Shown here: piece by piece, positions 1-51,864 of the stretch
Layout: every line of letters starts with the position of its first letter
Position numbering within the stretch: the stretch's first letter is position 1
Assembly: GCA_964592855.1 (NCBI GenBank)
Contig: CAZQKI010000001.1
Location: 23,175-87,174, forward strand
Direction: 5' to 3'
From: an uncultured Lentisphaerales bacterium
Lineage (GTDB): Bacteria; Verrucomicrobiota; Kiritimatiellia; RFP12; JAAYLN01
Length of the DNA: 64,000 nucleotides
Notes under the pieces: generated by a model
Seen by the model: the letters and a program-made list of their open reading frames with translations, nothing else
What the model was told of the DNA's origin: nothing
Databases searched by the model: none
Translations under genes and position numbers: made by a program

Positions 1-437
1 ATTCGTCTGTTTCCCCGCTCAGCCCGACCCCCTTCTTCGCCACCGTCAGGCGCCAGCCCTGTTTCATGCGGGTCTTTTTAGCGGGCGCATCGAACGCCTC
101 GACCGCCAGGGCGCCGATCAGGATCGGCACCCGCTTGTCACCGGCAACGGGCGCATTCGTGGCGATTTCGATCGTGGCGCCGGACATCTTTCCGAGGTAA
201 TGGGCCAGATCGGTCACCGAGTCCCTCAGTCGCTGGCGTTTGACCTCCAGGTCGCGGGCCGGATTCTTCATCCACTGAAAATCGGAAGGATTGGCCGCCA
301 TGACGCCGGCCGGCACGACAATGACCGCCAGGGCGCGGCCCTCTTTCACCAGCGTCACGTCCGCGCAGACCGCTCCGCCCGCCATGACCAGCCCCACAAA
401 ACACCCGATCCCCGTCTTACGCCGATTGCTCATGAAA
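1..437 (-). CDS. Secreted protein, N-terminal part only (start codon at 435-437; the gene runs off the window start). Signal peptide MSNRRKTGIGCFVGLVMAGGAVCA followed by an alpha/beta N-terminal domain like that of the glycoside-hydrolase-like proteins at 5498 and 60531
   Basis: Manual reverse-complement translation of 1-437 gives an uninterrupted frame (MSNRRKTGIGCFVGLVMAGGAVCADVTLVKEGRALAVIVVPAG...ATIEIATNAPVAGDKRVPILIG...). It is not in the ORF track because it has no in-window stop. Hydrophobic signal peptide present. Confidence 0.5.
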
Positions 438-514
438 ATGCCCCTTCCTGAAATTACCTGTGTTGTTGATGGATTGCTCAATGAAGCTCACGCTTGCATA
501 TCGACGCGACGGCG

Positions 515-1597
515 TCAAGCGCAAGTTCCGGGAATTCGCTTGCCGGACGAAGCGACTAGGCCGCCGTACCGGTAGGCTTCATCGAACAACGCGTCCAGAC
601 TGGCCAGAGGCGTGTCCCCCGTGATCATATTTCCAGCCGTAAAGATCAGGCGCCCCTCCGGTCGGTAATAAGTGTCCATGAGATGTCGCACCTCTTTCCT
701 CACATCCTCGGGAGACCCGAAAGGAATGGTTTTCTGCACGTCGAAACCGGCCCAAAACGTGATCTTCCCGCCATATCGCCGGGCAACGTCCACCTCGTTC
801 ATGGCATACTTCTGGATCGGATGCAAGACGTCCAGCCCCAGATCGATCAGCTTCGGCAGCAGCGGCTCGATATTCCCGCAAGTGTGCATCCAGTAGTGCA
901 TGCCGAGTTCATGAATGCGCTTGAAAATCTCGCTATAATACGGCGCGAAAAAGGCGTCGAAGATTTCCGGCGAGAAAAACGGGGCTGTCTGCATTCCCAG
1001 GTCGTCCGTGGCATATACGGCATCGGCATGGACTTCGAATTTCGCCCGTTCAATGACGCGAAGGTAAAAAACGGTCAGGGCGCGATACAAGTGGTGGACG
1101 TCGTCCGGATTCGTATAAAAATCCATCAGCGCATTTTCCATCCCCCGTAACTGCCAATGGCGTTCAAAGAGGGTAAACCACCAATGCGCCACCCGGTATC
1201 GGCCATCGGGCGCAGGAGGATTGGGGAAAAGGCCCGGATAATTGGGGTCGGGAAAATCCGCCAAAACGGCGTCCAGCATCGCCCAATCGCTCAACGGGAC
1301 CTGGGCGTCCAGCGCGGCCGACATCTCCTGCCGGGGCATCGTGGAGGGCATCCAGCAATAGGACGGATCGTCCGCCGGCGCATCATACAGCGTGACATTC
1401 CTCCAGGGAATCAATTGCGCATCGCAGGGATAGGCGTCGAGAATGGCCCTCACCTGCGCCTGGGTCTCGGCGCCATTAAACATCTCGGGGTAGGTCAGAA
1501 AATGCAGCACCACCGGCACGCGTTTCGCGGCCCCGCGACCCTCCACCACCCTGATCATCTCTTCGCGCGTTATTGGTGCAATCGTTTGATGTGCCAT
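515..1597 (-). CDS. Uroporphyrinogen decarboxylase (URO-D)/MtaA-like family protein, paralogue 1
   Basis: 360-aa frame with URO-D-family length and sequence pattern, similar to the paralogues at 9380 and 49586 (e.g. C-terminal ...TFWAGFDVQKT... versus ...TFWCPVDIQKT...). Start trimmed to the ATG at 1597 (MAHQTIAPITREEM). Lies directly downstream of the GH51 gene. Confidence 0.8.
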   Translation of the reverse strand: MAHQTIAPITREEMIRVVEGRGAAKRVPVVLHFLTYPEMFNGAETQAQVRAILDAYPCDAQLIPWRNVTLYDAPADDPSYCWMPSTMPRQEMSAALDAQVPLSDWAMLDAVLADFPDPNYPGLFPNPPAPDGRYRVAHWWFTLFERHWQLRGMENALMDFYTNPDDVHHLYRALTVFYLRVIERAKFEVHADAVYATDDLGMQTAPFFSPEIFDAFFAPYYSEIFKRIHELGMHYWMHTCGNIEPLLPKLIDLGLDVLHPIQKYAMNEVDVARRYGGKITFWAGFDVQKTIPFGSPEDVRKEVRHLMDTYYRPEGRLIFTAGNMITGDTPLASLDALFDEAYRYGGLVASSGKRIPGTCA

Positions 1598-1651: not shown

Positions 1652-3187
1652 TCATATCGTGAATTCAATTAACGTCAAACTGGCCGGCGGGAAGGTGATG
1701 GTGTCGGCCAAGGGCAACACTTGCGTCATCAACCCGACGCGGTCCGGGCGCTCCAGCGTATTTTCGGCCAACAAATCGTTTCCGCCGGTCAACCGATGCA
1801 GAATCATCGTTTGACCGGATGGCGAAATCCCGTTGAACGTCAAGCGGGTATCCAGCGACTCGCGTTCCGATTTGTTGATGACGGATACGGTCATCCGTTT
1901 GGCCGCATCGTCGATGCTGACCAGCACATCCAGCGCCGGAACAGCGGAAAAATGAATGAGCGAAGGCAGGGATTCGTCCCGGGCCCTTTCCGGGTCGACG
2001 ATGCCGCAGAAGAACCGTTCGTGCTTGGCGGAGAAAGCCGGCCCGTCCGCAACCGTTTCGACTACGCGCCCGGCGTGCTTTCGGCTGAGCAGGACATGGG
2101 GATAATAAATGGTTTGCCGCACGCAGCGGTCCCGGTCGGTGCGCAAGACACCCAGGACATTGGCCAATTCGGAAATGTTTGCCATCTTGATGGAATCGGC
2201 GTTGCGGAGGATGACATGAATCAACGAGGCGGCCGTTAACGCATCGGTATAGTTGTAGACCTCTTCCACGACCTGATGGGCCAGGTGTTTCTCGCGATAC
2301 CAGATATTCCATTCATCAAAGGCCAAACCCGGGCGGGCGGCAATGCCCAGATGCGCGTCCAGCGCTTCCGTTACATTCATGTTGGCCTGCTCGATCATAT
2401 GCTCGCAGACACAACTGGCCGCCATGCTGTCGCGGAAGATGGGGCGGCCGAAATAGTTGTGCACCGAAATGAGGTCGATGCGGTCGATCAGGCCGTTGAG
2501 CACCGTTCGATCCCATTGAGGGCCTGGCCGGCCGAGGCCGCAGACGATCGTCTTGATGGCCGGGTCGACCAGCTTCATCTGGTGAATGGCTTCCCGGCAC
2601 CACCGGACGTATTCGTCCGCCGTTTTGACGCCGGGCTGCCAATCGCCATAGATTTCGTTGCCCAGCCCGAAATACTTCACGCCATAGGGCGCTTCCCGTC
2701 CATGCGCCCGCCGTAAATCCGCCCACTTCGTGCGGGTGGTTCCGTTCAAATATTCAACCAGGTTGGCGGCGTCTTCCGGCGTCTGGGTGTGGGCATTCAC
2801 GGTCAGATAGAGTTCGGTCCCCAATTCCCGGCACAGCGCCCAGGCTTCGGGAATGCCGAAGGCTGGCGATTGACTGGACCATTTTTCCCGGAAATACTTG
2901 GCTCGGGGGCGTTCGCTGACAGGCCCGACCAGCTCCTGCCAATCGAAGTAGGCCACCGCACACCCGCCGGGATAGCGGAGATACGACGGCCGCAATTCCC
3001 GCAGCGCCTCCAGAACATCGGTTCGCAGCCCGTCGGAACGCGACCAGGGACTCGTCGGATCGTAAAGCCCGCCATTGATGCAGCGTCCGGTCAATTCAAT
3101 GAATTGCCCGAATAATAAATCGTGAATGACCCCTTGAGTCTTACGGGCAAAAACCGTTATCTCGGCACGATTAGACGATAGGTCCAT
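1652..3187 (-). CDS. alpha-L-arabinofuranosidase, GH51-like
   Basis: 511 aa; N-terminal beta-sandwich plus TIM-barrel pattern typical of GH51 (..GGLYDPTSPWSRSDGLRTDVLEALRELRPSYLRYPGGCAVAYFDWQ..). RBS-like gagagga upstream of the ATG at 3187. Confidence 0.8.
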   Translation of the reverse strand: MDLSSNRAEITVFARKTQGVIHDLLFGQFIELTGRCINGGLYDPTSPWSRSDGLRTDVLEALRELRPSYLRYPGGCAVAYFDWQELVGPVSERPRAKYFREKWSSQSPAFGIPEAWALCRELGTELYLTVNAHTQTPEDAANLVEYLNGTTRTKWADLRRAHGREAPYGVKYFGLGNEIYGDWQPGVKTADEYVRWCREAIHQMKLVDPAIKTIVCGLGRPGPQWDRTVLNGLIDRIDLISVHNYFGRPIFRDSMAASCVCEHMIEQANMNVTEALDAHLGIAARPGLAFDEWNIWYREKHLAHQVVEEVYNYTDALTAASLIHVILRNADSIKMANISELANVLGVLRTDRDRCVRQTIYYPHVLLSRKHAGRVVETVADGPAFSAKHERFFCGIVDPERARDESLPSLIHFSAVPALDVLVSIDDAAKRMTVSVINKSERESLDTRLTFNGISPSGQTMILHRLTGGNDLLAENTLERPDRVGLMTQVLPLADTITFPPASLTLIEFTI

Positions 3188-3564
3188 GATCGTATTTCCT
3201 CTCTAAATTGTTCCAGGGAGCGCAACATGTCATAACACTCCGAGAAAGTCCAGCGGGATTTATGTTTGAGCGTAAGGTGACCGTTCTGACCTCCTGTTAT
3301 GAAGATCTCAACATATTATTTTCTGCGAATGGTGGGGGGGTAGACAAGCTCATAGGAAAGTGCAAGAATAGTCCAATCATTTTTTGACGTGGCATTTTGC
3401 CACGCAGAAAACGAGTGGCGAGGACGGAAGGTTCAGCTTGCCCGTGTCGGGGTTCGATGACTTTTCAACAGGCAAAACGCCACGCCAAGCAAGCCGTCAG
3501 GCGCAGCTTGAAAGTGGTTTTTGCAAGAGACTCAAATGATCGAGGAATCAGAATAAGGAGCATC

Positions 3565-5166
3565 ATGAGGACGAAACACGCGTGGGTAAAAGCCGGATTC
3601 GCGATCGCCTGCCTGGCCATGCCGGTGCTGGGCAATGTCTGGGATGACGACAGCAACGACCACCTGTGGGACACCGCCGCCAACTGGAACCCCGCCGCCA
3701 AGCCCGGCCTTGGCAACTATGCAGAGTTCAACGACACCAAGGTCGGCCTCAGTATCGTCAGCACGGACTCCTCCGCTTGGGGGCTTGTTATCGAGAATAC
3801 GACCGGCGCACATGAAATGCAAATCGCGCCCGGTGCCACCGTGTCTGTCGGACCTAACGGCATCCGATTGGGCTATAACCAGGGCGTCAACCTCACCATG
3901 AACGGGGGAGGCGGGTTGCAAGGCGCAAGCGGCTATACGACCCCCTTGCGGGTGGGGCACCGTGAAGCCTTCATACAAAACGTTTACACCACCACCGTCA
4001 CGATAGCCAATTGCCGCCTGATTCTTGACCGTGTTTCCGAAATCACCGTCGGTTTCAATGGCGTGACAGGCTGGGGCGGGATCAGGAGCCTGCTTGATGC
4101 GAGCGGCGCCTCCTTCGTGTCGGGCTCGGCATCCAACCTGGTTCGCGTGCCCGTCATCAGTATCGGAAAAAACAATAATGCCAAAGGCACGTTGAAGCTC
4201 AATCCGGCTGTCACGAACATCACCGTCGACACGCTCGAAATGGGCAACCAATTCGGCACACAATCAGGCACCCTGGATTTGGGCGCCAATTCGCAATTAA
4301 AGACCCTGTCGGTCTCGAACAACCTCCTGCTCCCCTACGCCTACATCCTGTGCTACGACGGCTCCGGCACCTGCATAACGGGGTTCCCGGGGAATGTCGC
4401 GTTCAAGATGGGCTCTTCCAGCCAGCGCGCCGGAACATGGAGCATTGCGATTGGTGGCTTAGTGGATCCGACCGTATATTCATTCGGGCCGGGAATCAAG
4501 AGCGTCGAAGCCTATATCACCGCCCTGACGGTGGGCGATAATTCCAATACGCCAGGCCATTATCGGCACGGCACGCTCGATCTGCGGAAAGCGACAATCA
4601 ACAAGCTGGATGTCTCCGGCGCCGTGAAACTCGGCGGCAATAGCGGGTATGGCAAGCTGTATTTGCCCACGGGACGCGCCACCTGCGCCAGCCTGGATCT
4701 CGGCGTGAGCCTTGTCACCCATTATGGGCTGTGGGCATCAGGCCTGCTCTCCCTCAGCAACACCGAATTCGTGGTGTCGGGAAATGTGACCGTAGGCATG
4801 GGCGCAACCGATCCCTGGAGCACCGGAAAGATCGAAAGCCTGACCGACGGCAAGTCGTCCGGACTCGACATGACCAACCTGACCGCCACGCTGACCCTCG
4901 TGAACGCCGCCAATAAAATTGAGTTGACCTTTGCCGGTCCGCCCGCGGATCCCTTCAAGCCCTATTGGGGCTTGAGGATGGCCGGCAATACCTCCAGCCA
5001 GCTTACGACCCTGAACACCGCCGGAAAGCTGACGTGGACCATGCCCGGACTTACGAGCGAACAACAGGCAAAATGCGGCATCCACTACGACCCCGTCGGG
5101 AACGTCACGTATGTCGGGCTCCCGGCGGCGACGAAGCCTCCCGGCACGGTCGTTGTCGCACGGTGA
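3565..5166 (+). CDS. Secreted Gly/Thr/Asn-rich beta-helix or passenger-repeat-like protein
   Basis: ATG at 3565 preceded by aaggag. Signal peptide MRTKHAWVKAGFAIACLAMPVLG, then repetitive G/T/N/S-rich segments (..GTLDLGANSQLKTLSVSNN.., ..HGTLDLRKATINKLDVSGAVKLGGNSGYGKL..) typical of parallel beta-helix or autotransporter-associated repeats. Confidence 0.65.
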   Translation: MRTKHAWVKAGFAIACLAMPVLGNVWDDDSNDHLWDTAANWNPAAKPGLGNYAEFNDTKVGLSIVSTDSSAWGLVIENTTGAHEMQIAPGATVSVGPNGIRLGYNQGVNLTMNGGGGLQGASGYTTPLRVGHREAFIQNVYTTTVTIANCRLILDRVSEITVGFNGVTGWGGIRSLLDASGASFVSGSASNLVRVPVISIGKNNNAKGTLKLNPAVTNITVDTLEMGNQFGTQSGTLDLGANSQLKTLSVSNNLLLPYAYILCYDGSGTCITGFPGNVAFKMGSSSQRAGTWSIAIGGLVDPTVYSFGPGIKSVEAYITALTVGDNSNTPGHYRHGTLDLRKATINKLDVSGAVKLGGNSGYGKLYLPTGRATCASLDLGVSLVTHYGLWASGLLSLSNTEFVVSGNVTVGMGATDPWSTGKIESLTDGKSSGLDMTNLTATLTLVNAANKIELTFAGPPADPFKPYWGLRMAGNTSSQLTTLNTAGKLTWTMPGLTSEQQAKCGIHYDPVGNVTYVGLPAATKPPGTVVVAR

Positions 5167-5497
5167 TATTACATGAGGCTCATGCACCCCCCACCGAACG
5201 CTGCGCCAAACGGTCGCGTGGCGGGCGGCCGTTGCCACGCCAGCGGTAGACGAACGCTCCGAAATGTGGGATACTTATTTCGTTCGTTTTGGGCGCGGTG
5301 TGTTGCCACGCAGAAGACGATGGGGCGTAGGTTGGGGAGTCAGGCGAGACCACGGTGGGCAGCCGGGTGCTTCAATTTACAAAACGTCCCGGTCGCAAGC
5401 CGGTCTGTATGTCTATACAGGCAGACAGGACAGTCGGCGCAGCGACCGGGGGGTTTTGCTGGAGCCTCGTCTGTTTAGTCATCGGAGGTTGCTTTCC

Positions 5498-8400
5498 ATG
5501 TCACGAGCGAAACGTCTTTCTCCCGGCCGCTACATGGCGGTCTTGGGGAGCGGTCTTTTTCTGATTGCCGCAGGGTGTGCGAGGGAAACGAAGCTTGGGC
5601 CGGCCAAAGGTATTGAGCCGGCCGCCAATCTCCTCCACTTCGTGGCCGCCTCCCCCGAACCAGGCTTCGCACTGCCGCAAATCGTGCTCCAATACGACCC
5701 GGTGGCAAAAACCGGATCGGATGGGGCCCCGGCGTTGCAGTTTTGGGATGTCACGCCGCCGTTCATCATGAGCCGCGCCGCCTGCTACCTGCGCGAGGGA
5801 CTCCTGCGCATGACCGGTCGGTCGTTCACCATTATCAGCACAAACGACCTTTCGAAAGGCATCGTGCTCACGCTGCTCAACGGGGCGGACGCGTCGATCC
5901 GCAACGACCCCGACGTGCAGTCGGCGCTCCGGGCAGATCCGAAGGACGTCTATGCCAGCCAGGAGGCCTATTTCATCCGTTCGGAATCGAACCGCCTGCT
6001 GATCGTGGCCAACACCCCGGCGGGGCTGGCCAGCGGCGTCGTCGAACTGCTTGAATCGGTCGAATACGAAGTGCTCGGAATGGGGCCGGACTGGATCCAC
6101 GTGCCGGACTACCGCAACAAGCCCCTGGCGTTCGCGATTCGCCGCTCGGGCCGGCCAAGTTTCTATATCCGCGGGCTCATCGCCACCAGCGGACAATGCT
6201 ACGGCGTCGGCACGATCGTGTCCGGCCTGACCGATCCGGCGGACGAGCCCGTGACCGACAGCTACTGGCGCTGGCAGATCGGGGCGCGGCTCTTCGGAAC
6301 CTCGATGCCCGGCTTTCCCGGCCATGCGCTGCAGACTTATCACATCCCGGTCATCGACTATATGCGGACTAACAACGTGACCGAGGGCTTCCTCGCCCCC
6401 GGGACGATCATCACCCCCGAAGCCCGGCGGCCCGCCGCGGCCGCCGGAAATAATGGCTGGCTCTGGCTCGACTCGAAAAAAACGGCAGCCTGTTCCTCCG
6501 ACGGCAAAACGTGGGTGGCCAACGACTTGAACAACATCGCCTTCAACCTGGACCTGTCCATGCCCTTTGTCCGGGAGATCATCTTCCGGTCCCTCGCAAA
6601 CATGGCAGAGGCGGCCTTCGAAAAGGAGCCGGATGCGCTCGTGGTTTTTCCCATGGACGCCGAAGATGGTGCCGGCTACGGGAGTCTCGACACGTTGATG
6701 AAGAACAAGACCTGGTATCCCGATTACCTGGCTCATTCGGGCGCGGCCTTCGGCAAGCCCTATGTGCTGCATGGACATAACGGGCTGAATCAGCCGGTCG
6801 AGATCTGGGACCCGGCGGCCGCCAGCGACACGATGTTCGGCTTTGGCAACTATCTCCTGCGCGAATACGATAAATGGATCGACTCCCTTCCGGCGGAGAA
6901 GCGGATCACCGCCTCCGGCAAATCGAAAAAGGACCGGGTGCGCGCCAGCTTCTACAGTTACAACTATCACGACGTGCCGCCGAACTTCAACGTGGACCCC
7001 CGCGTTCGGGTCATGATCGCCAGCTACCCGAAGCACCGCGGCCAGGGCAAGTGGGAAAAATTCGCCTCGCAGGAGGACATGGCCCGCGCCTTCAAGGTCA
7101 TGCTGCCGCGGGAACCCTCCGGCGACTATCGCATCCTGACGCTTTCCTATTACCTCGATCCCGGGCCGGCCAACATCCCCGCCGCCTGGAGCGCGGCGCC
7201 GGCCGCGATCGCCGCCGACTACCGGCGGGCCTATGACGCCGGCTACCGCGCGATCAACTGCGAAACCGATTTCAACTTCGGCCGCTACGGACTCGCCTAT
7301 TACCTCATCGCCAAGTTCCTGTGGAACGCCGACCTGAAGCCGCACGAACTGGACCTTATCCGCGACCGCTGGTTCCGCCGCGCCTTCGGCGGGGCCTGGC
7401 GGGAGATGAAGGTCTACTATGACTTCATGCTGACCGACAACTACCCCGTCAACGGCCCCAACACCTGGGCGCAGGCCATCCGGCTGCTCGATGCCGCCGA
7501 CCGGAAACTAAATGGTGCACAGGAGCCGGCCGCCCAGAAACGCATCGATGACTGCAAGCAGTTCTGGTACCACCACTACCTGATGGACACCGGGCTCTAC
7601 ACGGTGGCGTCGCCCGAGGTCCGGGAATACCTGTGGAAGGGGCAGATGTCGTATATGGTCGCCCTGCACGTGCTGTGCCGGCGCGATTTCGGGAAGGACT
7701 CGGTGCTGGAGGCCCTCGGGCCGGAGGGCGCCAAGGGCCCCGCGCACTACACGCACGCCGAGACCCAGGTCTGGTGGGCGAAGATTCTGGCCCATTGGAC
7801 CGTCACGCCGGTAACCGAATGGACCGAGGCCAAGCTGGCCAATGGCAAGCCGGCGCGATCCGTGGACCTGAACGACCTGGTCAGGGTCAGGGAATTCCAG
7901 AGCGAAAAGAGCGATGCGCCCTTCTACTGGAACAGCGGCTTCATGAAGCCGGTCCCGTTCGTCACGATCGCGCGCCGCAAGGACGATATCGTTGGCTTCA
8001 AGCTCGTCTGGCCTTTCAACCCGAAGGACAGCTACTACATCGCCAAGAAACTGCCCTACGGCGTGGATATCTGGAATCCGGGGACAAAGGCGTGGGACGC
8101 CTGGGTCGACAAGACCATGATCGTCCAGCCGTCCGTCGAGATCACGAATGCTCAGGGGACCGCCATGCAGTTGGTGGATGTCCGGCTCAAGGCGCCGCGC
8201 CCAGGCACGTATCGCTTCGACCTCGGATATGGCGGAAATGCAAGCTTCCTGTCGAGCGTCGCCTACGATCCGGTGACGCAGACCTACACCAACGCCGCGC
8301 CGTTCACCTACACCACCTGCGCCGAAGGGCACACTCAGTCGGAGGTCTATTTCTACATTCCGAAGGGCGTTCAATCCCTTGACCTCGAAGTATGGGATGC

Positions 8401-8662
8401 GGCCCGCGGCAAGCAAATCACGTTTTACAAGGGGTTGCCGGACTGCAAACCCGAAGTTTCGCGCCGCGTAGACGTAACCGGAATGGGAACACACCGGGTG
8501 GCGTTGCAGGCCGGAGAGGACGGCACGGTGGTTTCCCTCTACGGGGACGGGTTCAGCTTTCCTTTCCTCTACTCCGTGCCGACCCTCTGGGCCAAGTCAC
8601 CCGGTGCCCTGCTGGTGCCGCGGGCCGTGGCCGAGGCTGACGGTCTGACGATCCTTCTTTAA
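5498..8662 (+). CDS. Large secreted lipoprotein (about 1054 aa) of unknown function; N-terminal alpha/beta domain resembles GH20/GH67/GH115-type N-domains; possibly DUF4838-like (low confidence)
   Basis: ATG at 5498 with ggaggtt RBS. Lipoprotein-type signal (MSRAKRLSPGRYMAVLGSGLFLIAAGCA). Long conserved-looking frame. The ORF track start at 5264 is probably too early. Confidence 0.7.
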   Translation: MSRAKRLSPGRYMAVLGSGLFLIAAGCARETKLGPAKGIEPAANLLHFVAASPEPGFALPQIVLQYDPVAKTGSDGAPALQFWDVTPPFIMSRAACYLREGLLRMTGRSFTIISTNDLSKGIVLTLLNGADASIRNDPDVQSALRADPKDVYASQEAYFIRSESNRLLIVANTPAGLASGVVELLESVEYEVLGMGPDWIHVPDYRNKPLAFAIRRSGRPSFYIRGLIATSGQCYGVGTIVSGLTDPADEPVTDSYWRWQIGARLFGTSMPGFPGHALQTYHIPVIDYMRTNNVTEGFLAPGTIITPEARRPAAAAGNNGWLWLDSKKTAACSSDGKTWVANDLNNIAFNLDLSMPFVREIIFRSLANMAEAAFEKEPDALVVFPMDAEDGAGYGSLDTLMKNKTWYPDYLAHSGAAFGKPYVLHGHNGLNQPVEIWDPAAASDTMFGFGNYLLREYDKWIDSLPAEKRITASGKSKKDRVRASFYSYNYHDVPPNFNVDPRVRVMIASYPKHRGQGKWEKFASQEDMARAFKVMLPREPSGDYRILTLSYYLDPGPANIPAAWSAAPAAIAADYRRAYDAGYRAINCETDFNFGRYGLAYYLIAKFLWNADLKPHELDLIRDRWFRRAFGGAWREMKVYYDFMLTDNYPVNGPNTWAQAIRLLDAADRKLNGAQEPAAQKRIDDCKQFWYHHYLMDTGLYTVASPEVREYLWKGQMSYMVALHVLCRRDFGKDSVLEALGPEGAKGPAHYTHAETQVWWAKILAHWTVTPVTEWTEAKLANGKPARSVDLNDLVRVREFQSEKSDAPFYWNSGFMKPVPFVTIARRKDDIVGFKLVWPFNPKDSYYIAKKLPYGVDIWNPGTKAWDAWVDKTMIVQPSVEITNAQGTAMQLVDVRLKAPRPGTYRFDLGYGGNASFLSSVAYDPVTQTYTNAAPFTYTTCAEGHTQSEVYFYIPKGVQSLDLEVWDAARGKQITFYKGLPDCKPEVSRRVDVTGMGTHRVALQAGEDGTVVSLYGDGFSFPFLYSVPTLWAKSPGALLVPRAVAEADGLTILL

Positions 8663-8691
8663 GCAACATGGATTCGTGGCCAACTGGCGGC

Positions 8692-8940
8692 ATGATGACG
8701 AAACGCGCGTGGGGAACGGCCGGATTCGCGATCGCCTGCATGGCCCTGCCGGTGCTGGGAAACGTGTGGACCGACGGGGGCGACGCGACACCCGGTACCG
8801 TCACCGTGAACGGAGGGGGAATCCTGCAAGTCGGCGGCGCCGCCCGAAGTCCGGGAATACCTGTGGAAGGGACAGATGTCCTACATGGTTGCCATGCACG
8901 TGCTGTGCCGTCGCCACGGCAGTTGAACTGGCACAAGCGC
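8692..8940 (+). pseudogene. Chimeric gene remnant: a paralogue of the N-terminus (signal peptide plus about 45 codons) of the 3565 gene, fused to an approximately 85-bp duplicate of an internal segment (7601-7690) of the upstream 5498 gene
   Basis: MMTKRAWGTAGFAIACMALPVLGNVWTDGGD closely parallels MRTKHAWVKAGFAIACLAMPVLGNVWDDDSND. Nucleotides 8831-8915 are about 90% identical to 7601-7690 (..GTCCGGGAATACCTGTGGAAGGG.CAGATGTC.TA.ATGGT.GCC.TGCACGTGCTGTGCCG..) but are read in a different frame, after which the frame terminates. Confidence 0.45.
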
Positions 8941-9055
8941 GAGTTCTACGGCTTTCTCCATTTCACCACCTAATGCGGGCTCCGCCCGCAACCCAATTGC
9001 ATGCCAATCTGGAACTCAAGAAGGAAAGGAGGACGACCGTAGGAAATCGTGATCC

Positions 9056-9379: not shown

Positions 9380-10537
9380 ATGACGAATCGTGAGCGCGCC
9401 CTGTCCGTACTTCGCTATCAACCGGTTGACCGCATGCCGCTGGTCTATTTCGGCTTCTGGCACGAAACGCTTCAGAAGTGGGCCGCAGAGGGGCACATCC
9501 GGGTGGAATTGGCGAAGGGGTGGGGGGACGGCAATGCGGCCGACTTCGAGATCGCCAAGCTGCTGGGTTTCGACTTCAACTGGCAGTCCTGCTTTTCAAT
9601 GGCCACTTTCCTGAAGCCGTATTTCGAGTCGGTGGTTATGGAAACGCTGCCGGACGGAACGCAGCACATCCGAAACGGGCTGGGTGTCACCGTCACGTCC
9701 AAGGCTGGCGCCGGCTCGATCCCCGCCGAAACCGACCATTTGCTGAAGGATCGTGCCTCCTGGGAGGAGCACTACAAACCGAGGCTGCAATGGGATCCCA
9801 GCCGCGTGGAGGAGGCCCGCGTCCGGATCGGCCAGCAACTCATTCCCTTCGGGCAGGGCGGGATGGAAGCCTTGCGGGATACGCCGCGGGACTGGCCGCT
9901 TTCGCTGCATTGCGGCAGCCTCATGGGAACCATCCGCAACATCGTGGGGATGGAGAACCTGTGCTATCTGGAAGTCGATGATCCCGACCTGTTGTTTGAA
10001 ATCATCGATACCGTCGCCGACCTGTGCTACCGCTGTGCCGAGCATGCGCTCAAGCGGGGCGGGGTCTTCGATTTCGGGCACTTCTGGGAGGACATCTGCT
10101 TCAAGAACGGACCGCTGGTCCGGCCGCAGCTGTTTGCCGAGAAGGTCGGCCCGCACTACCGCCGGATCACCGAACTGCTGAACCGGCATGGTCTGGACAT
10201 CGTCTCGCTCGATTGCGATGGTCAGATCGACGCGCTCATCCCCACGTGGCTGGACAACGGCGTCAACACGATGTTCCCGATCGAAGTGGGGACGTGGAAC
10301 GCCTCGATCGAACCCTGGCGCGCAACCTACGGGAAACGGATCCGCGGCGTCGGCGGGATGAACAAGACGGTGTTTTCCCGGGATCGGAAGGCCGTCGATG
10401 CAGAGGTGAGCCGGCTGATGAAGCTGGTGGAACTGGGCGGATTCATTCCCTGTCCCGACCACCGCATCGCTCCCGACGCGGAATGGGACAATGTCCGTTA
10501 CTACGCCGACCGGATGCGGGCGGTTCTGGGGGCGTAG
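9380..10537 (+). CDS. URO-D/MtaA-like family protein, paralogue 2
   Basis: 385 aa; ATG at 9380 with gagagga RBS; paralogous to 515-1597 and 49586-50584. Confidence 0.8.
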   Translation: MTNRERALSVLRYQPVDRMPLVYFGFWHETLQKWAAEGHIRVELAKGWGDGNAADFEIAKLLGFDFNWQSCFSMATFLKPYFESVVMETLPDGTQHIRNGLGVTVTSKAGAGSIPAETDHLLKDRASWEEHYKPRLQWDPSRVEEARVRIGQQLIPFGQGGMEALRDTPRDWPLSLHCGSLMGTIRNIVGMENLCYLEVDDPDLLFEIIDTVADLCYRCAEHALKRGGVFDFGHFWEDICFKNGPLVRPQLFAEKVGPHYRRITELLNRHGLDIVSLDCDGQIDALIPTWLDNGVNTMFPIEVGTWNASIEPWRATYGKRIRGVGGMNKTVFSRDRKAVDAEVSRLMKLVELGGFIPCPDHRIAPDAEWDNVRYYADRMRAVLGA

Positions 10538-10893: not shown

Positions 10894-11175
10894 TCACCTT
10901 TGTCGCGATACGGAAAGAAAGTGCCCTTCTGGCTTCCAGGCGGCGCGGTCCGATACGTCCCGCGCTACTTTTACGGCCGCATTGATCCGGGCGTGAGCGG
11001 TAGAGCGGGACGTATTGGACCGCTCAAAGTCAATCGAGCGCATCCTGAACGTAAATGACTCACCACCGAGGGTCGCGCCGCGCCGCTGCATCAGTGCCAG
11101 CACATTGCGATCCCCGACATCGGTTTCATCGTTGGCGATGTCGCGAACGCCGTCGGTTCCGAACATTTTGCTCAT
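10894..11175 (-). pseudogene. Phosphoglucosamine mutase (glmM-like phosphohexomutase) N-terminal remnant
   Basis: MSKMFGTDGVRDIANDE matches the strongly conserved GlmM N-terminus (M.KYFGTDGVRGVANSE) and the active-site-proximal FGTDGVRG motif. Similarity is lost after about 40 codons and the frame stops at 93 aa. No other frame continues a roughly 450-aa mutase, and the space it would need is occupied by the convergent URO-D gene. Confidence 0.5.
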
Positions 11176-12350
11176 GGTGTGCCTGTTTCCCAGTGTCCTG
11201 CAACGGCATCCGCGATACGTTGCAGCCAGGCTGTGCCTGCCTGTCGGGCCGCCGCCGGCAGCGATTGGATGGCTTCGATATACGTTGGCTGGCGGTTGAT
11301 GGCGATTGCGGCCGTTAGTTCCTCCGGGGGGATGAAGCCGGCGGTTTTCGGGATGAAGATCATCTGCTCCAGCCTGGGGCGCAGGGCCAGCAGGCGCTGG
11401 TGCGACGCATGCGGGCCCGGGGCGTCGGCGATTTTTCCGGCCAATCTTTCCAGTTGAGTGGCGCGCTCGGCCGCCGCCGCCGCCAGCAGTTGCTGTGCGC
11501 CGCGCAGGCAGGCCTGTGCGTAGGGGTCACCGGGGGTGAGCAGGGGTCGGATGCAGGCGTACCAGGCGGCGAGCGCATGGAGGTTGCCGGCATACGTGAA
11601 ATTATTGCGGCAGACGCGGTCAATGTCGCCGTATTGATTCAGGTTGTATGGCGTCTCCGTCCGCTGGCCGCCGCCCGGTCCGCCGATGAGCAGCCCTTCC
11701 TCCACCACGTCGCGGCGCCAGACCGTCCCGGCGGCCAGCACGGTGCCGTAGGCGATCCGGACCGGCCCGACCAGCCCGCCCTGTCCGCCGAGGAAAATCG
11801 GGAGACGGTCGAGCATCACGCCGCGCGGAACATCGCCGATGAGCGAGGCGGTGGCCTTGTCCTGTCGGGCGGTGAAGTTGAAGTGGATATACGAGGACCC
11901 GACTTCGCTGTGTTCCTTGGGCCCGGTGCCGCCAGCCATCAGGCAGTCGCAGAAGTTGATCAGGCTGCCGAGCGTGACAAACGGCATCAGAATGGTCTGC
12001 TTGAGACCGACGGTATGGGCGCAGGACGCCTGCTCCTCGAGCAGGGTGCCGGGGCGGATGTGCGCACCGGAGCCGGCCGCCGCGCCGTCGAGGAACACCG
12101 CTTCCTCGGCGAAGCCGCCGCAGAAGCGCACCCCGCGGCCGAGACGGCAGTTGATCAGCGTCGCCGGCGCCTCCGCGCCGATGCGGCAGCCCGGGCCGAT
12201 GGAGGTGTCTCCGCCGCTGATGCGGCATCCGGGATGGATTTCCGCTCCGGGTGAAATCTGTTCCGGGGAAACGTCCAGCGTCACGGTTTCGGGATGGTGC
12301 ACCACCACGCCACGGTCAATGAACCACCGGTTGTCACTGGTTGTGAACAT
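11172..12350 (-). CDS. Left-handed beta-helix (hexapeptide-repeat) acyl/acetyltransferase-like protein with a C-terminal alpha-helical extension
   Basis: N-terminal hexapeptide repeats (GAEIHPGCRISGGDTSIGPGCRIG..., IRPGTLL..VGLKQTILMPFVTLGSLINFCDCLMAGG) resembling the GlmU C-terminal LbH domain; no nucleotidyltransferase domain; 392 aa. Confidence 0.7.
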   Translation of the reverse strand: MFTTSDNRWFIDRGVVVHHPETVTLDVSPEQISPGAEIHPGCRISGGDTSIGPGCRIGAEAPATLINCRLGRGVRFCGGFAEEAVFLDGAAAGSGAHIRPGTLLEEQASCAHTVGLKQTILMPFVTLGSLINFCDCLMAGGTGPKEHSEVGSSYIHFNFTARQDKATASLIGDVPRGVMLDRLPIFLGGQGGLVGPVRIAYGTVLAAGTVWRRDVVEEGLLIGGPGGGQRTETPYNLNQYGDIDRVCRNNFTYAGNLHALAAWYACIRPLLTPGDPYAQACLRGAQQLLAAAAAERATQLERLAGKIADAPGPHASHQRLLALRPRLEQMIFIPKTAGFIPPEELTAAIAINRQPTYIEAIQSLPAAARQAGTAWLQRIADAVAGHWETGTP

Positions 12351-12651
12351 ACGCCGCCTCTACTCTCCGCCGCCTTGCGGCGGCCTGCATAGCCAACAAT
12401 ACCGCACATTTCGAAAACGCCCCGATCCCCGGTCATGGTCGGCTGCTCATCGGCGACCCGATCCGCAGAAGCCCGAATCAGGTCGGAACCGATCAGCGAC
12501 ACCCATCCAAGAGCGTTAGCATGTCAAAAGCCTGTGCCGTCTGTCAAACGGGCTTTGCGATCAACGAAATCGCTTACGATGCCGAATAAGTTTTGTTATC
12601 ATGGCTGCGGTTCTGGTTGAAGAATGGATACGGACTAAGGGAGAGATTGAT

Positions 12652-46024: not shown

Positions 46025-47044
46025 ATGGTAATTGATCATTTTCTGGCAGTCGACGCGGGGGGGACTAAATGCGAGGCGCTCCTGATGACGGCGCAGGGGG
46101 AGGCCATCGCCTTCCACGTCGTATACCCCGGTCAGGTTTCCGTGACCGGTGACTATGGGCGCGGGCGCGATTCAGCCGCATCGCTGGCGGCCATTCAAGG
46201 TGTGTTGCGGACGGCAAATCCAGCCGGGGTGATCCATTTCGTGACCGGCAACGGCGCCATGACGCATGACTTCCGGCACACCCTGAAGGCGCGTCGCGTC
46301 ACCTTGTGGCATGCCGCTGAGGCGGAGGCGGCGCAGGCCTGGGCCGGGGTCGAAGACGCGCTGGTGGCTTTGTCGGGCACCGGTGCGTTCGGCCATCTTT
46401 GCCTGGCCGGACAGAACTGGCACGCCGATGGTCTCGGCCCCCTGATGGGCGACTGGGGCGGCGCCTACCAGATCGGCCGGGAGGGCCTGCGCACCGCGTT
46501 GCGCGCCAAGGGTCCCCCCAGTCTCAATGCGGCACTGCGTGGCGCGCTGGCGCGCGAGATGGGCCTCCTCGAAGACTCAGGGCAATTGCAGAACATGATG
46601 ATCCGCGAGGGGATCCGGATCTTTGCGGACCGGACGGCGGTGGCGCATTATGCGGGGATGGTGGACCGGACGGCGCGTGCGGGCGATGCGGCGGCGGTCG
46701 GCATCCTCGAAACGGCCGCCGCTGACCTGGCGGAAACGCTGCGTTCCCTGGTCGAGCAGGCCGGCGTCGCAACGGCTGTTGCTCTGCCATTCATCGGTAC
46801 CGGTGGCGTGATTTACGGTTCGGACATCTACTGGAATCGTCTGGTGCAGTGCGTCTCAACCTTCCTGCCCAATATTCGGCCCCTGCGGCAGAATTTACCG
46901 CAGGCTGCCGGGTTGGCGCTGACAGGGTTGTGCCAGGCGGTCCACGCGGGCGAAGTGAAAGCGGATGTGGCGCGCGTCAGAGAACGGCTCTGCGCGACGC
47001 TGCCCGCCCTGTTGCAGGCATCGGATGGAAAGGGATCAAAATGA
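46025..47044 (+). CDS. BadF/BadG/BcrA/BcrD-type ATPase (N-acetylglucosamine-kinase-like sugar kinase)
   Basis: N-terminal phosphate-1 motif LAVDAGGTK; ASKHA fold length (339 aa); first gene of a five-gene operon with ATGA overlap into the next gene. Confidence 0.75.
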   Translation: MVIDHFLAVDAGGTKCEALLMTAQGEAIAFHVVYPGQVSVTGDYGRGRDSAASLAAIQGVLRTANPAGVIHFVTGNGAMTHDFRHTLKARRVTLWHAAEAEAAQAWAGVEDALVALSGTGAFGHLCLAGQNWHADGLGPLMGDWGGAYQIGREGLRTALRAKGPPSLNAALRGALAREMGLLEDSGQLQNMMIREGIRIFADRTAVAHYAGMVDRTARAGDAAAVGILETAAADLAETLRSLVEQAGVATAVALPFIGTGGVIYGSDIYWNRLVQCVSTFLPNIRPLRQNLPQAAGLALTGLCQAVHAGEVKADVARVRERLCATLPALLQASDGKGSK

Positions 47045-47784
47045 CGGCGGCATTGGATTATCTGAATACGGTCCGGGGTGTCCTGGATCATTACGAACGC
47101 ACCCAGTTGACGAACGTCGAGCGGGCGGCCGCGCTGGTCGCGGACAGCGTGTTGAACGGAGGCACGGTGCATCTGGCGGCCATCGGACACAGCAACGAGC
47201 AGGATTTCATCAACCGCGCCGGCGGGCCGGCCTTTCTGCAGCCGCTGAGTTTTTCGCTGACCCTCAATGACCCGGTTGCCGATTGTCTGAAGGCGCGGCC
47301 CCGGCCGGAGCCCTTCGACCGCGAGGTTGAGACGGTCCGGCTGGCGCTGAAGGCCGGCAACCTGCGTTCCGGCGACATCGTGGCCGTGGGCTCGGTGTCC
47401 GGCCGCAACGTCCGACCCGTCGCCATCGCGCTGACCTGCCGTGAAATGGGCATCCGGACCATCGCCTTCACCGCGCTCGCCTACACGGGCAAGGTGGACT
47501 CCGCACATCCCTCCGGCAAGAAACTGGCCGAGGTGGCCGATGTGGTGATCGACAGCGGCGCACCCTATGGCGACGCGGCCGTGACGATACCGGGCTACGA
47601 CATCGCACTCCTGCCGGTCTCGGGAGCATCGATGGTGGTGGGCGGCTGGCTGGTCTGGGGGCGGGCACTGGAACTGATGGCCGCGAAGGGCAAGCCGGCA
47701 TCGGCATTCATGAGCGTGAACCGTCCGGATGGACAGGACTACTACAACAAAAGCCTGGCGCGCTATCAGCAGCTGGGCTATTAG
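47041..47784 (+). CDS. SIS-domain sugar-phosphate isomerase-like protein 1
   Basis: 247 aa; SIS motifs (..GGTVHLAAIGHS.., ..GDIVAVGSVSGRN..); paralogous to the next gene. Confidence 0.7.
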   Translation: MTAALDYLNTVRGVLDHYERTQLTNVERAAALVADSVLNGGTVHLAAIGHSNEQDFINRAGGPAFLQPLSFSLTLNDPVADCLKARPRPEPFDREVETVRLALKAGNLRSGDIVAVGSVSGRNVRPVAIALTCREMGIRTIAFTALAYTGKVDSAHPSGKKLAEVADVVIDSGAPYGDAAVTIPGYDIALLPVSGASMVVGGWLVWGRALELMAAKGKPASAFMSVNRPDGQDYYNKSLARYQQLGY

Positions 47785-47798
47785 CACAGGAGCGCACC

Positions 47799-48539
47799 AT
47801 GTCTGCGGATGTCTATTTTAAAGAAGCGGCGGCGGCCTTGGCTCGCGTGGCGGAGACCCAGCGCGACGCGATCAGCAAGGCCGCCGGCTTGATGGTGGAT
47901 GCCATCCTGGCGGATCGGTGCCTCTTTTCCTTCGGCGCCACGCATTCATTCATTCTCACCGAGGAGCTGGTCTACCGCACCGGCGGACTCATGCTGATCA
48001 ATCCGATCTACCCGCACGGCATGAACCTGTCGGTGCGCCCCATGACCCAGACCTCGCGATTCGAACGCATCCCGGGGCTGGGCGCGGAACTGCTGGCGGG
48101 AACGCCGGCGAAGCGGGGCGACGTGCTGATCCTCGCCTCCACGTCGGGACGCAACGCCGTCACGATCGACATGGCGCTTGCGGCGCGGGAAAAAGGCCTT
48201 CGGACGATCGGCATTACGGCCATGGCTTACACGCTGGCGGTCGCCAGCCGCCATTCGTCCGGCAAAAAACTGGTCGACCTGTGCGATGTGGTGATCGACA
48301 ACGGCGCACCCTATGGCGACGCCGCCGTGGACATCCCGGGTTTTCCGCAGAAGGTGGGCCCCCTGTCCTCGCTGACCGGAATCGCGATCGTCAACGCCCT
48401 GGCGGCCGAGACGGCAGCGCGGCTCATGGCGGCAAATGTCACCCCGCCGGTCTTCATGAGCGCCAATGTGGACGGCGGCGACGCGCACAACGCCGCACAA
48501 CTCAAGGCCAATGCGCACCGCATCCACTACATGAGCTGA
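47799..48539 (+). CDS. SIS-domain sugar-phosphate isomerase-like protein 2
   Basis: 246 aa; ..RCLFSFGATHS.., ..GDVLILASTSGRN..; shares the ..SGKKL.(E/D).(A/C)DVVID.GAPYGDAAV.IPG.. block with SIS-1. Confidence 0.7.
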   Translation: MSADVYFKEAAAALARVAETQRDAISKAAGLMVDAILADRCLFSFGATHSFILTEELVYRTGGLMLINPIYPHGMNLSVRPMTQTSRFERIPGLGAELLAGTPAKRGDVLILASTSGRNAVTIDMALAAREKGLRTIGITAMAYTLAVASRHSSGKKLVDLCDVVIDNGAPYGDAAVDIPGFPQKVGPLSSLTGIAIVNALAAETAARLMAANVTPPVFMSANVDGGDAHNAAQLKANAHRIHYMS

Positions 48540-48683
48540 GCGCGCTCTTTTGGAATGTCCTTTTGGGCTTGACGCTGGGCCGCGGCTCAATTACGGTTGT
48601 CGGCTCGCGGGCATGCTCCGTCACGGTGACGGTGGGTGCTTTCGCATGGAATCAGCGTGCGCGCGGAAAAAGAGAAGGCAATC

Positions 48684-49526
48684 ATGAAGTCTTTCAAGAT
48701 CGGTGTCATGTCGGATGGTTTTCGCCTCCCTCCTCTGGAGGGTATTCGAAAGGCCGCTGAAATCGGCGCGCAGGGCGTCCAAATCTACACCGTCCGCGGA
48801 CCCATGGGGCCCGATGAGATGACGGTGGCGAGGCGCGCCGAGCTGCGCAAGCTGGTCGCCGACCTGGGCATGGTGATTTCCGCGTTGTGCGGCGACCTGG
48901 GCGGCGGTTTCCGCGATGCCGCGAAGAACCCCGAGAAGGTTGCGCTCTCGAAGCGCATCGTCGATCTGGCCGCCGATGTCGGCACGACCGTCGTGACCAC
49001 CCACATCGGCGTAACCCCCGAAGACCGCACCTGCCCGACCTACAAGACCATGCTGGCGGCGTGCCGCGAGCTGGCCGACTATGCCGCGAGCCGGAAAGTC
49101 ACCTTTGCCGTCGAAACCGGCCCGGAGACGGCCTCCGTGCTCAAGCAGTTTCTCGATGACATCGACAGCAAGGGCCTGGGCGTCAACCTGGATCCGGCGA
49201 ACCTGGTCATGGTTTCGGGCGACGACCCCGTGGCGGCGGTGCACACGCTCAAAAAGTACATCGTCCACACCCATGCGAAGGACGGCATTCAAATCAAGCC
49301 CGGCAGCGTCGAGGCGGTCTACCATGGCGCCGCGGCCAGCTCACAGCCCGCCGCCAAGTTCAAGGAAGTCCCCCTCGGCGAAGGCCAGGTCGACTGGCCC
49401 CGCTACCTCGATGCGCTGGAGCAGATCGGCTACAAGGGATTCCTGACGATCGAGCGCGAAGTCGGCGCCAATCCCGCGGCGGACATCGCCAAGGCGATCG
49501 AGTTCCTGCGCGCGAAGATCGCCTAG
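48684..49526 (+). CDS. Sugar phosphate isomerase/epimerase (xylose-isomerase-like TIM barrel)
   Basis: ATG at 48684 (agagaagg RBS); ..AVETGPE.., ..NLDPANLVM.., ..HTHAKDG.. TIM-barrel metal-site pattern. Confidence 0.75.
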   Translation: MKSFKIGVMSDGFRLPPLEGIRKAAEIGAQGVQIYTVRGPMGPDEMTVARRAELRKLVADLGMVISALCGDLGGGFRDAAKNPEKVALSKRIVDLAADVGTTVVTTHIGVTPEDRTCPTYKTMLAACRELADYAASRKVTFAVETGPETASVLKQFLDDIDSKGLGVNLDPANLVMVSGDDPVAAVHTLKKYIVHTHAKDGIQIKPGSVEAVYHGAAASSQPAAKFKEVPLGEGQVDWPRYLDALEQIGYKGFLTIEREVGANPAADIAKAIEFLRAKIA

Positions 49527-51845: not shown

Positions 51846-51864
51846 ATTCCCCGCTTGCCGCAGA

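Follow-up and report, generated by a model that had tools for sequence, protein, structure and literature searches.

Among described proteins, those most akin to the genes considered here are, as we take it, the corrinoid-dependent methyltransferases I (MT I) OdmB and VdmB of Acetobacterium dehalogenans, MtvB of Moorella, MtoB of Methermicoccus and CdmB (PDB 9RUI). These are cytoplasmic TIM barrels of the UroD superfamily from anaerobes, with multiple paralogues per genome and a metal site that is variable or reduced relative to His-Cys-Cys. A stretch of 64,000 nucleotides from an uncultured Lentisphaerales bacterium (contig CAZQKI010000001.1; hereafter the window) encodes three proteins that share these traits and whose families adjoin glycoside hydrolases, sugar transporters and sugar kinases in place of the aromatic or halomethane genes found with MT I. 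The three are cytoplasmic enzymes of three ancient branches of the UroD/MtaA/MetE superfamily, not haem-pathway decarboxylases. We tentatively favour, at a probability of about 0.4, that they are cobamide-dependent, MT I-like methyltransferases that demethylate sugars. Their coordinates are as follows.

515-1597, minus strand: para1, UroD-superfamily protein of 360 aa (347 aa with a start at 1558, as in public gene calls), Pfam URO-D
9380-10537, plus strand: para2, UroD-superfamily protein of 385 aa, the most divergent of the three, Pfam URO-D
49586-50584, plus strand: para3, UroD-superfamily protein of 332 aa, Pfam URO-D

All three open reading frames (ORFs) are intact and, as the initial annotation had proposed, all belong to the URO-D family. 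In a Pfam scan each exceeds the gathering cut-off of PF01208 (23.9 bits), para1 with 77.3 bits (E 1.4e-21), para2 with 40.2 bits (E 2.8e-10) and para3 with 50.3 bits (E 2.3e-13), and these matches are not due to chance. In every case only the C-terminal ~55% of the profile is covered, from position 134-160 on. Pairwise BLASTP gives 29% identity for para1 and para3 (E 3e-27), 26% for para1 and para2 (E 3e-9) and 25% for para2 and para3 (E 1e-6). Because their mutual identity is this low, the paralogues must be old, and a recent local duplication does not account for them. A C-terminal K.TFW...D.QKT block that had been ascribed to all three is common to para1 (GKITFWAGFDVQKT) and para3 (GKITFWCPVDIQKT), where it takes the form GKITFW...D[VI]QKT; para2 has GKRIRGVGGMNKT at this place. 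Signal-peptide-like N-termini were not seen by eye in any of the three translations, and we therefore read the proteins as cytoplasmic.

Each paralogue has a large set of relatives. Homologue searches returned 769 matches for para1 (the best 120 of the 769 at 53-68% identity), 1347 for para3 (the top ones 70-79% identical across phyla) and more than 5145 for para2 (62-66% identity, across phyla), from sources named as Lentisphaerae, Kiritimatiellae, Planctomycetota, Phycisphaerae, Verrucomicrobia, Hydrogenedentes, Sumerlaeota, Armatimonadota and Clostridia. A phmmer search with para1 against 1.84 billion representatives of 50%-identity clusters found 8186 clusters at E<=1e-3; of these, 3756 pass E<=1e-10 and 153 pass E<=1e-30. 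Among GTDB representative species, 187 of those scanned carry a relative of para1; they include members of Planctomycetaceae, Victivallales and Anaerolineae, Treponema from termite guts and numerous gut Clostridia. The carriers in culture, human-gut Clostridia among them, are Merdimmobilis hominis, Neglectibacter timonensis, Faecalicatena contorta and Treponema sp. TIM-1, and a further one is a metagenome-assembled genome (MAG) assigned to Marvinbryantia formatexigens. By record name the carriers come from gut, rumen, termite, sediment and digester habitats, and from these names and habitats they appear to be anaerobes. Sequence comparison indicates that the paralogues represent three separate, well-conserved subfamilies without characterised function, whose genes bear the automatic JGI name 'uroporphyrinogen decarboxylase'.

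AlphaFold2 models of para1 (pLDDT 92.4, pTM 0.90) and para2 (pLDDT 89.4, pTM 0.89) are UroD-type TIM barrels. Foldseek places HemE and MtaA about equally close to both models (TM 0.55-0.69, 12-17% identity), and the matches to many HemE structures (E 1e-13 to 1e-8) identify the fold as a UroD-type (beta/alpha)8 barrel. The catalytic barrel of MetE ranks after these (TM 0.41-0.48). The paralogues are also single barrels of 332-385 aa, unlike the two-barrel, ~750-aa MetE, and the positions equivalent to its zinc ligands His-Cys-Glu-Cys are occupied by Asp/Cys/Glu/Cys in para2 and by His/Cys/Gln/none in para1 and para3.

The second group of described relatives, MtaA/MtbA/MtsA (PDB 4AY7) and the Mlp proteins of type 1 mlp clusters (MGCs), carries a His-x-Cys-Gly motif on the same strand, with which para1 and para3 align exactly. 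Searches of PDB sequences with each paralogue, and with a profile of the para1 family, gave nothing usable beyond a marginal match to the HemE C-terminus. A profile of all three subfamilies, searched against PDB at E<=10, produced alignments to MtaA, HemE and CdmB, and it sets wlHsCGkIeallp exactly onto vLHiCGNvnpiLs of MtaA 4AY7, which contains the His-x-Cys zinc motif. The motif reads MHTCG in para1 (His225 and Cys227, counted over 347 aa) and MHSCG in para3, with His and Cys invariant within both families, and the Cys position is invariant across all three. The second Cys of the MtaA site is missing from para1, which has TAGN, and from para3, which has a gap. In para2 the His is replaced by Asp, so that an Asp-Cys-Asp and Cys358 stand at the MtaA-type site; a His-Cys-Cys sphere is not formed. 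This sphere marks the S- and Se-methyltransferases of the superfamily, and O-methyltransferases have replaced one or both Cys (PMC10418091). We favour reading the predicted metal motif of para1 and para3 as MtaA-type with an 'O-type' ligand set.

Within each family, conserved motifs are dense. Invariant blocks are DGRYR, WW..FER.W.LRGM (FERHW.LRGM in para1), DD.G.Q, H.CG, DV.HP.QK, GFDVQ and GN....D in the para1 family; DEWGN.W, GF.FNIARKMRKL, EDWG.Q, MHSCG, FDQP.LHG and F.CPVDIQ in the para3 family; and CGSL, HFWEDIC.K.GPL, SLDCDG, GVNTMFPIEVG.W, RGVGG and PC.DHR in the para2 family. According to predicted secondary structure they fall at the C-terminal ends of consecutive strands. As invariant residues the three families have in common only R13, D46, D179, D186, C227, G228, G241 and G302, numbered as in para1. 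The para2 family keeps Cys178, Cys240, Asp278-Cys279-Asp280, Glu302 and Cys358-Pro-Asp360-His361 invariant; its four Cys (178, 240, 279 and 358), unchanged in 25 members, are placed where predicted barrel strands end or immediately behind. With Glu302, Asp278/280 and His361 they could form a Cys-rich zinc or Fe-S site, unusual for a UroD barrel.

The initial annotation had doubted that any of the genes is a genuine HemE, and this doubt is well founded. In an NCBIfam scan at E<=0.01 none of the paralogues matched a HemE model; the only models returned were MtaA/CmuA/MtbA/PRK06252, with PRK00957 in addition for para3. The best scores of 45.2, 17.9 and 35.1 bits lie below the family cut-offs of 235-600 (TIGR01463, NF040654, NF041608). 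The Pfam alignments are C-terminal only, and an RQAGR-type, Arg-rich N-terminal motif (MRQAGR) was not seen in any of the three translations. Landmarks of human UROD are the substrate-binding Arg37/Arg41, the catalytic Asp86 and the active-site His339 of the C-terminal GHG. The human sequence compared by hhalign has the expected residues at 37/41/50/86/164/219/339. Only the C-terminal half of para1 aligned with it, and of para2 and para3 no more than short stretches near the C-terminus. The position of the GHG His is an invariant Asn310 in the para1 family (GNG) and is deleted in para3; para2 keeps a His there (His361). HemE is thus rejected as the identity of these genes on the missing model match, the absent N-terminal motif and the loss of the GHG His from para1 and para3. 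On the suggested check of HemE residues against a zinc-binding His/Cys/Glu triad, the HemE residues are wanting apart from the para2 His at the GHG position, and His-x-Cys is present in para1 and para3, with His changed to Asp in para2.

Orthologous loci show what company these genes keep. We fetched 80 para1-family and 80 para3-family loci, predicted their genes with a self-trained, codon-score caller into which UroD matches were forced, and scanned the neighbours in bulk against Pfam; the neighbour counts below depend on this home-made caller. Four para2 loci were inspected as well. Nearest neighbours of para1 orthologues (n=140) include AraC regulators (19), BPD_transp_1 (9), URO-D (7), GFO_IDH_MocA (4) and alpha-L-fucosidase (3), and second neighbours (n=126) include BPD_transp_1 (16), URO-D (8), ABC_tran (6), ThuA (4) and an MGH1-like glycoside hydrolase (GH; 2). 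A GH51 arabinofuranosidase lies next to para1 in the window, and five more genomes, of Bacillota and Anaerolineae, have a homologue of it close to the para1 orthologue (L029, L031, L037, L039, L089). In a Clostridia MAG (CALWNQ010000003.1; L045, 525-12980), one strand encodes an unknown protein, a RuBisCO-like protein, PfkB, mannitol dehydrogenase, a cupin, URO-D, another unknown protein, the para1 orthologue, two further URO-D and GH4. This sugar operon, with its four UroD-like genes, is reminiscent of branched-sugar (apiose-type) catabolic clusters. Locus L023 reads SASA esterase, RHGA-like beta-helix, unknown, URO-D, URO-D, para1 orthologue, and locus P0027 (ENA ERZ1426840) reads URO-D, beta-helix, ..., URO-D, an 866-aa protein, para1 orthologue, GH63-like, MttB-family, SASA, GDSL, GH63-like. 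The gene that follows the P0027 para1 orthologue belongs to an MGH1-like/GH63-like family that is also present in the window.

Neighbours of para3 orthologues (n=144 ORFs, nearest and some second-nearest) include URO-D (8), AP_endonuc_2 (7; the family that also adjoins para3 in the window), GH43 (2), GH38 (2), sulfatase (2), CobA/BtuR (2) and DUF1638 (2), and GH26 is likewise found nearby. Around a 79%-identical para3 orthologue the order is DUF4838, GFO, Pel9A-like, para3 orthologue and an overlapping AXE1/GCE-like esterase, with 2-keto-3-deoxy-6-phosphogluconate (KDPG) aldolase and PfkB upstream. DUF4838 is associated with both paralogues, since it follows para1 in the window and stands three genes upstream of para3 in this locus. 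The four para2 loci are as follows: one gene comes after GH106, one is inside a LacI-GFO-GH4 operon, one is beside a 3-keto-disaccharide-hydrolase-like gene, and one comes after alcohol dehydrogenase (ADH) and AP_endonuc_2 with GH5 nearby. The paralogues also co-cluster. Of the 80 para1 loci, 13 have two or more UroD-superfamily genes in total, and 12 of the 80 para3 loci carry extra ones as well; para3-type and para1-type genes lie side by side in L150, and para2-like genes stand beside para3 and para1 orthologues in L136, L158, L035 and L038. Such co-clustering resembles multi-methyltransferase systems. The neighbourhood association, whose disappearance from related genomes had been named as a possible refutation, persists: orthologues of all three paralogues lie in carbohydrate loci in many phyla.

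A further set of neighbours links some of these orthologues to cobamides, as MT I genes are linked to corrinoid protein, pterin-binding methyltransferase II (MT II) or B12-reactivation genes. A Sumerlaeota locus (L011) has the order S-methyl_trans, Met_synt_B12, corrinoid protein (B12-binding_2 and B12-binding), para3 orthologue, canonical URO-D (180 bits on PF01208) and major facilitator superfamily (MFS) transporter; it is a split methionine synthase with UroD-type genes in place of the pterin module. In L119 the order is Pterin_bind, DNA_alkylation, URO-D, URO-D, DUF1638, para3 orthologue, GH38, and in L114 it is GH26, URO-D, Met_synt_B12-like, URO-D, para3 orthologue. DUF1638 adjoins para3 orthologues in three unrelated metagenome contigs (L119 4701-5456, L138 2376-3155, L120 239-901), and fitness data connect this family with the reactivation of B12 in split methionine synthases (PMC5764234; PMC12478193). 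CobA/BtuR is divergently adjacent to the para3 orthologue in L168/L169, S-methyl_trans is three genes away in L009, and in L008 the orthologue lies between two B12-dependent mutase genes. For the para1 family, P0027 has a gene for a non-pyrrolysine MttB-superfamily methyltransferase (10962-12356) among glycan esterases/GH63 and three UroD-like genes, and no corrinoid protein within 8 kb of it. The latter shows that cobamide methyltransferases need not adjoin their own corrinoid gene in these organisms, which weakens the counter-argument from missing corrinoid proteins.

In the window itself, the genes around the three paralogues and other features are listed here, and they are considered in turn below.

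2-481, minus strand: DUF4838 protein, N-terminal part of a full 785 aa (gene calls and Pfam on identical contigs), cut by the window end
1652-3187, minus strand: GH51-like alpha-L-arabinofuranosidase (Alpha-L-AF_C E 1e-26; ArfA model E 2e-96), directly upstream of para1
11172-12350, minus strand: GlmU-C-terminal-like hexapeptide acyltransferase-domain protein, 392 aa (GlmU NCBIfam models over residues 9-223 only, E 4e-16, far below cut-off)
46025-47044, plus strand: BadF/BadG/BcrA/BcrD-type ATPase, sugar-kinase-like (PF01869 E 3.9e-15; weak NagK match), first gene of the para3 cluster
~47056-47784, plus strand: SIS-domain sugar isomerase-like protein (SIS_2 E 2.1e-17; PRK02947 164.6 bits against a cut-off of 135)
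47799-48539, plus strand: second SIS-domain sugar isomerase-like protein (SIS_2 E 1.2e-37; PRK02947 288 bits)
48636-49526, plus strand: xylose-isomerase-like TIM barrel, sugar-phosphate epimerase/isomerase-like (AP_endonuc_2 E 1.2e-40), directly upstream of para3
50628-51887, minus strand: convergent neighbour of para3 with a weak oligogalacturonate-lyase-like C-terminus (PF14583 31.0 bits against a cut-off of 30, residues 372-410 only; no NCBIfam match)
62931-63953, minus strand: MGH1-like/GH63-like glycoside hydrolase, partial at the window end (PF22422 E 7e-30)

As had been described, para1 is on the same strand as GH51, with 54 bp between them from start 1597, or 93 bp from the public start at 1558. 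The DUF4838 gene lies 33 bp downstream of para1, and no terminator-like site was found in either flanking gap, on the GH51 or on the DUF4838 side. A sigma70-like -35/-10 match (10/12) at 1651-1678 on the minus strand, within the 3' end of GH51 and just upstream of para1, indicates that para1 may also have its own transcription. The full DUF4838 gene is seen at L001 3005-5362, and another member is at L181 1056-3410. In its last ~130 residues the DUF4838 protein is similar to a sugar-binding domain found in GH2 beta-glucuronidases (6eca, E 4.5e-9); that it could be an alpha-(methyl)glucuronidase is a guess.

The surroundings of para2 are less telling. What had been taken for a decayed glmM beside it (11172-12350, minus strand) is not glmM: its product matches only the C-terminal acetyltransferase half of GlmU, with a left-handed beta-helix followed by a C-terminal ~170 aa without assignment, and has no Pfam match. 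The large neighbours at 3397-5166 and 5264-8662 (both plus strand) matched no Pfam or NCBIfam family. The same is true of 60531-62165 (minus strand), and these three proteins range from 544 to 1132 aa. By eye, 3397-5166, 5264-8662 and the short ORF 8668-8973 have signal-peptide-like N-termini, and that of 8668-8973 resembles that of 3397-5166 (..AWGTAGFAIACMALPVLGNVW..). Because the large neighbours of para2 match no family, the description of each paralogue as embedded among glycan-active genes holds in the window for para1 and para3 only.

The gene para3 is the last of a five-gene cluster in which a kinase, two SIS genes, a TIM barrel and para3 follow one another on the plus strand, with no terminator-like site inside it, and its earlier placement in a SIS operon is borne out. 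The start of the first SIS gene is approximate, its ORF opening at 46849 and the domain beginning at residue 70. Just downstream of the cluster are two divergent giant genes, 51865-56022 (minus strand) and 56398-60516 (plus strand), of 1385 and 1372 aa and without Pfam family; by eye their products look mutually paralogous, with common blocks such as GLPSS.HI.G.TLEEAP. The rest of the window, which has a G+C content of 58-67%, consists by eye of ordinary housekeeping genes, Rnf-like subunits and pseudopilin-like proteins typical of Planctomycetes-Verrucomicrobia-Chlamydiae (PVC) bacteria; from their translations some genes look like those of Rnf subunits.

Our preference for an MT I-like function follows from the superfamily and the metal motif, the cytoplasmic location, the anaerobe-looking carriers, the tandem paralogues, the sugar context and the cobamide adjacency seen in a minority of loci. 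In such a pathway, neighbouring glycoside hydrolases and esterases would free sugars or oligosaccharides, and ATP-binding cassette (ABC), MFS or sodium:solute symporter family (SSF) transporters would bring these in. The UroD-like enzyme would bind the methylated sugar at the C-terminal face of the barrel, where a metal held by His-x-Cys (para1, para3) or by Asp-Cys/Glu/Cys-x-x-His (para2) could polarise the ether oxygen. The methyl group would then move to cob(I)amide, whether unbound or carried by a corrinoid protein whose gene lies elsewhere, and from there to tetrahydrofolate (by a pterin-binding methyltransferase) or to homocysteine (by an S-methyltransferase domain). The demethylated sugar would enter ordinary catabolism, which in the para3 cluster could involve the kinase, the SIS isomerases and the epimerase. 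As to the substrate, we can offer guesses from the gene content: 4-O-methyl-glucuronate, given GH51, GH43, GH4, a GCE-like esterase, UxuA-like genes and KdgK/KdgA neighbours; O-methyl-mannose, given neighbouring GH26 and GH38; or the methyl sugars of rhamnogalacturonan II (RG-II), given the operon with a RuBisCO-like protein (RLP/apiose-like) and GH106.

Several points weigh against sugar demethylation. To cleave an alkyl methyl ether of a sugar is chemically more demanding than to cleave an aryl methyl ether, the kind known for the superfamily, the presumed substrate would be unprecedented for the MT I group, and to our knowledge alkyl methyl ether chemistry is without precedent in the UroD superfamily. 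Most loci are equally well explained by another sugar-converting activity. Similarity to characterised methyltransferases is marginal, with the three-subfamily profile reaching E 0.014 for MtaA 4ay7 and E 0.14 for CdmB 9rui, the latter a weak match over profile positions 201-334. The genes of characterised MT I usually lie in a cluster with those of their corrinoid protein, MT II and activase (PMC13222342). Such clustering is absent from the window and most loci, and is found in a minority (L011, L114, L119, L138, L120, L168, P0027). Cobamide-linked neighbours occur in only ~8 of ~85 para3-family organisms, mostly on short contigs; the P0027 MttB gene is the sole case for para1, and none of the 4 para2 loci has one. 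A phmmer search of six-frame ORFs in the 64-kb window found no corrinoid protein, Pterin_bind, DUF1638, MetH reactivation domain or S-methyl_trans, and the same queries in the 80 para1 loci gave two distant S-methyl_trans matches only; as single-sequence phmmer queries, these searches have limited sensitivity. Of the two activities first suggested, methyl-group removal has gained circumstantial support from the cobamide methyl-transfer genes beside some orthologues, with none detected in the window, and carboxyl-group removal has gained no support.

The strongest alternative, to which we accord a smaller but substantial share of belief, is that the paralogues are cobamide-independent, metal-dependent sugar-converting enzymes built on the UroD barrel, such as an isomerase/epimerase, a dehydratase/lyase, a sugar-acid decarboxylase or a hydrolase of a non-methyl decoration, and provide further steps of catabolic operons. 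Most loci hold sugar genes only (AraC, ABC permeases, GFO_IDH_MocA, ThuA, PfkB, mannitol dehydrogenase, RuBisCO-like, GH4, UxuA-like/AP_endonuc_2), which fits this idea, as do the marginal similarity to known methyltransferases, the presence of generic TIM-barrel sugar epimerases among weak Foldseek matches and an active face whose conserved residues are rich in Asp, Glu, Trp and Tyr, as in sugar-binding barrels. We know of no member of the UroD superfamily with an activity of the isomerase, lyase or hydrolase type. The strict conservation of the MtaA His-x-Cys motif also speaks against it, and it leaves unexplained the recurrent corrinoid protein, pterin-binding methyltransferase, DUF1638, MetH reactivation domain, CobA and MttB neighbours. 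The activities given for the superfamily are decarboxylation and alkyl or methyl transfer only (PMC10418091).

Less probable is that the roles are unrelated, with para1 and para3 sugar-linked and para2 a lineage-wide housekeeping enzyme of PVC, Hydrogenedentes and relatives that carries a Cys-rich metal or Fe-S site and lies among glycan genes incidentally. Para2 is only 25-26% identical to the other two, has more than 5000 homologues in various phyla (62-66% identity), looks mostly monocistronic, with neighbours that differ among the four loci, has four invariant Cys at or just after predicted strand ends and, in the window, has neighbours without recognisable glycan function. Its other settings are harder to reconcile with this proposal: three of the four para2 loci place it directly after or within GH or sugar-oxidoreductase genes (GH106, LacI-GFO-GH4, ADH-AP_endonuc_2), and para2-like genes stand beside para3 and para1 orthologues in the four loci named above.

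It is rather improbable that the paralogues are MtaA-like methyltransferases 2 (MT2), that is, methylcobamide:thiol or selenol methyltransferases of methionine salvage or methyl-sulfur metabolism, like Mlp. Their best, weak NCBIfam matches are indeed MtaA/MtbA/CmuA models, the fold of MtaA matches the para1 and para2 models at TM 0.57-0.66, S-methyl_trans and MetH-derived parts adjoin some para3 orthologues, and para2 retains two Cys and a Glu at MetE/MtaA ligand positions. Para1 and para3 lack the His-Cys-Cys sphere (PMC10418091), however, and the scores of 18-45 bits are 5- to 30-fold under the family cut-offs. Identity to MtaA is 14%, well under the >25% that defines Mlps. Neither methanogenesis nor sulfur-metabolism genes are among the enriched neighbours, unlike in the MtaA group, and in L011 the canonical URO-D beside the para3 orthologue is the better MT2 candidate.

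That one or more of the genes is the real HemE of the organism is hardly credible: the Pfam family name, the JGI names, the common fold with HemE structures as top Foldseek matches and the para2 His at the GHG position are outweighed by the absence of a HemE model match and of an RQAGR-type motif, an N-terminal substrate-binding region that cannot be aligned, the His lost to Asn in para1 and deleted in para3, the 12-17% identity to HemE structures and the presence of three copies, none with haem genes nearby.

Methyl ethers block sugar catabolism, and strict anaerobes do most of the fermentation of plant fibre and algal glycans. In the literature searched we found no work that deals with UroD-like proteins from sugar loci or with sugar demethylation by corrinoid-dependent enzymes, nothing about what becomes of 4-O-methyl-glucuronate, and no account of how strict anaerobes handle methylated sugars. 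The UroD-superfamily literature found covers Mlps, aromatic O-demethylases and haloalkane MT I, with no sugar-linked members. The only carbohydrate demethylase found there is an aerobic, O2-requiring P450, the 6-O-methyl-D-galactose demethylase of marine Bacteroidetes (PMC6292453). If the paralogues are sugar demethylases, they would share its role of removing a blocking methyl ether inside a polysaccharide-utilisation locus. The resemblance would be a functional analogy only, as the P450 is of another protein family, uses haem and O2 where the paralogues would use a cobamide, and releases formaldehyde oxidatively where they would transfer a methyl group.

The paralogue families are real, widespread and without assigned function, with a testable and potentially important role. 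A bolder proposal, on which we would not yet rely, is that they constitute the missing anaerobic route for sugar methyl ethers, as UroD-type cobamide MT I in polysaccharide-utilisation loci, with para2 perhaps bearing a four-Cys metal or Fe-S site not described before; candidate substrates are then 4-O-methyl-glucuronate (from glucuronoxylan), 2-O-methyl-fucose and 2-O-methyl-xylose (from RG-II), O-methyl-mannose and O-methyl-galactose. Assigning a function would correct the widespread misnaming as 'uroporphyrinogen decarboxylase' and add a new enzyme class to polysaccharide-utilisation loci. Should the enzymes demethylate sugars, they would do without oxygen what the aerobic P450 does with it, and should they depend on cobamides, B12 availability and one-carbon metabolism would be linked to fibre degradation in guts and sediments. 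If the anaerobic route exists, the methyl groups of sugars would feed the folate or methionine pools of anaerobes in gut, rumen, termite and sediment.

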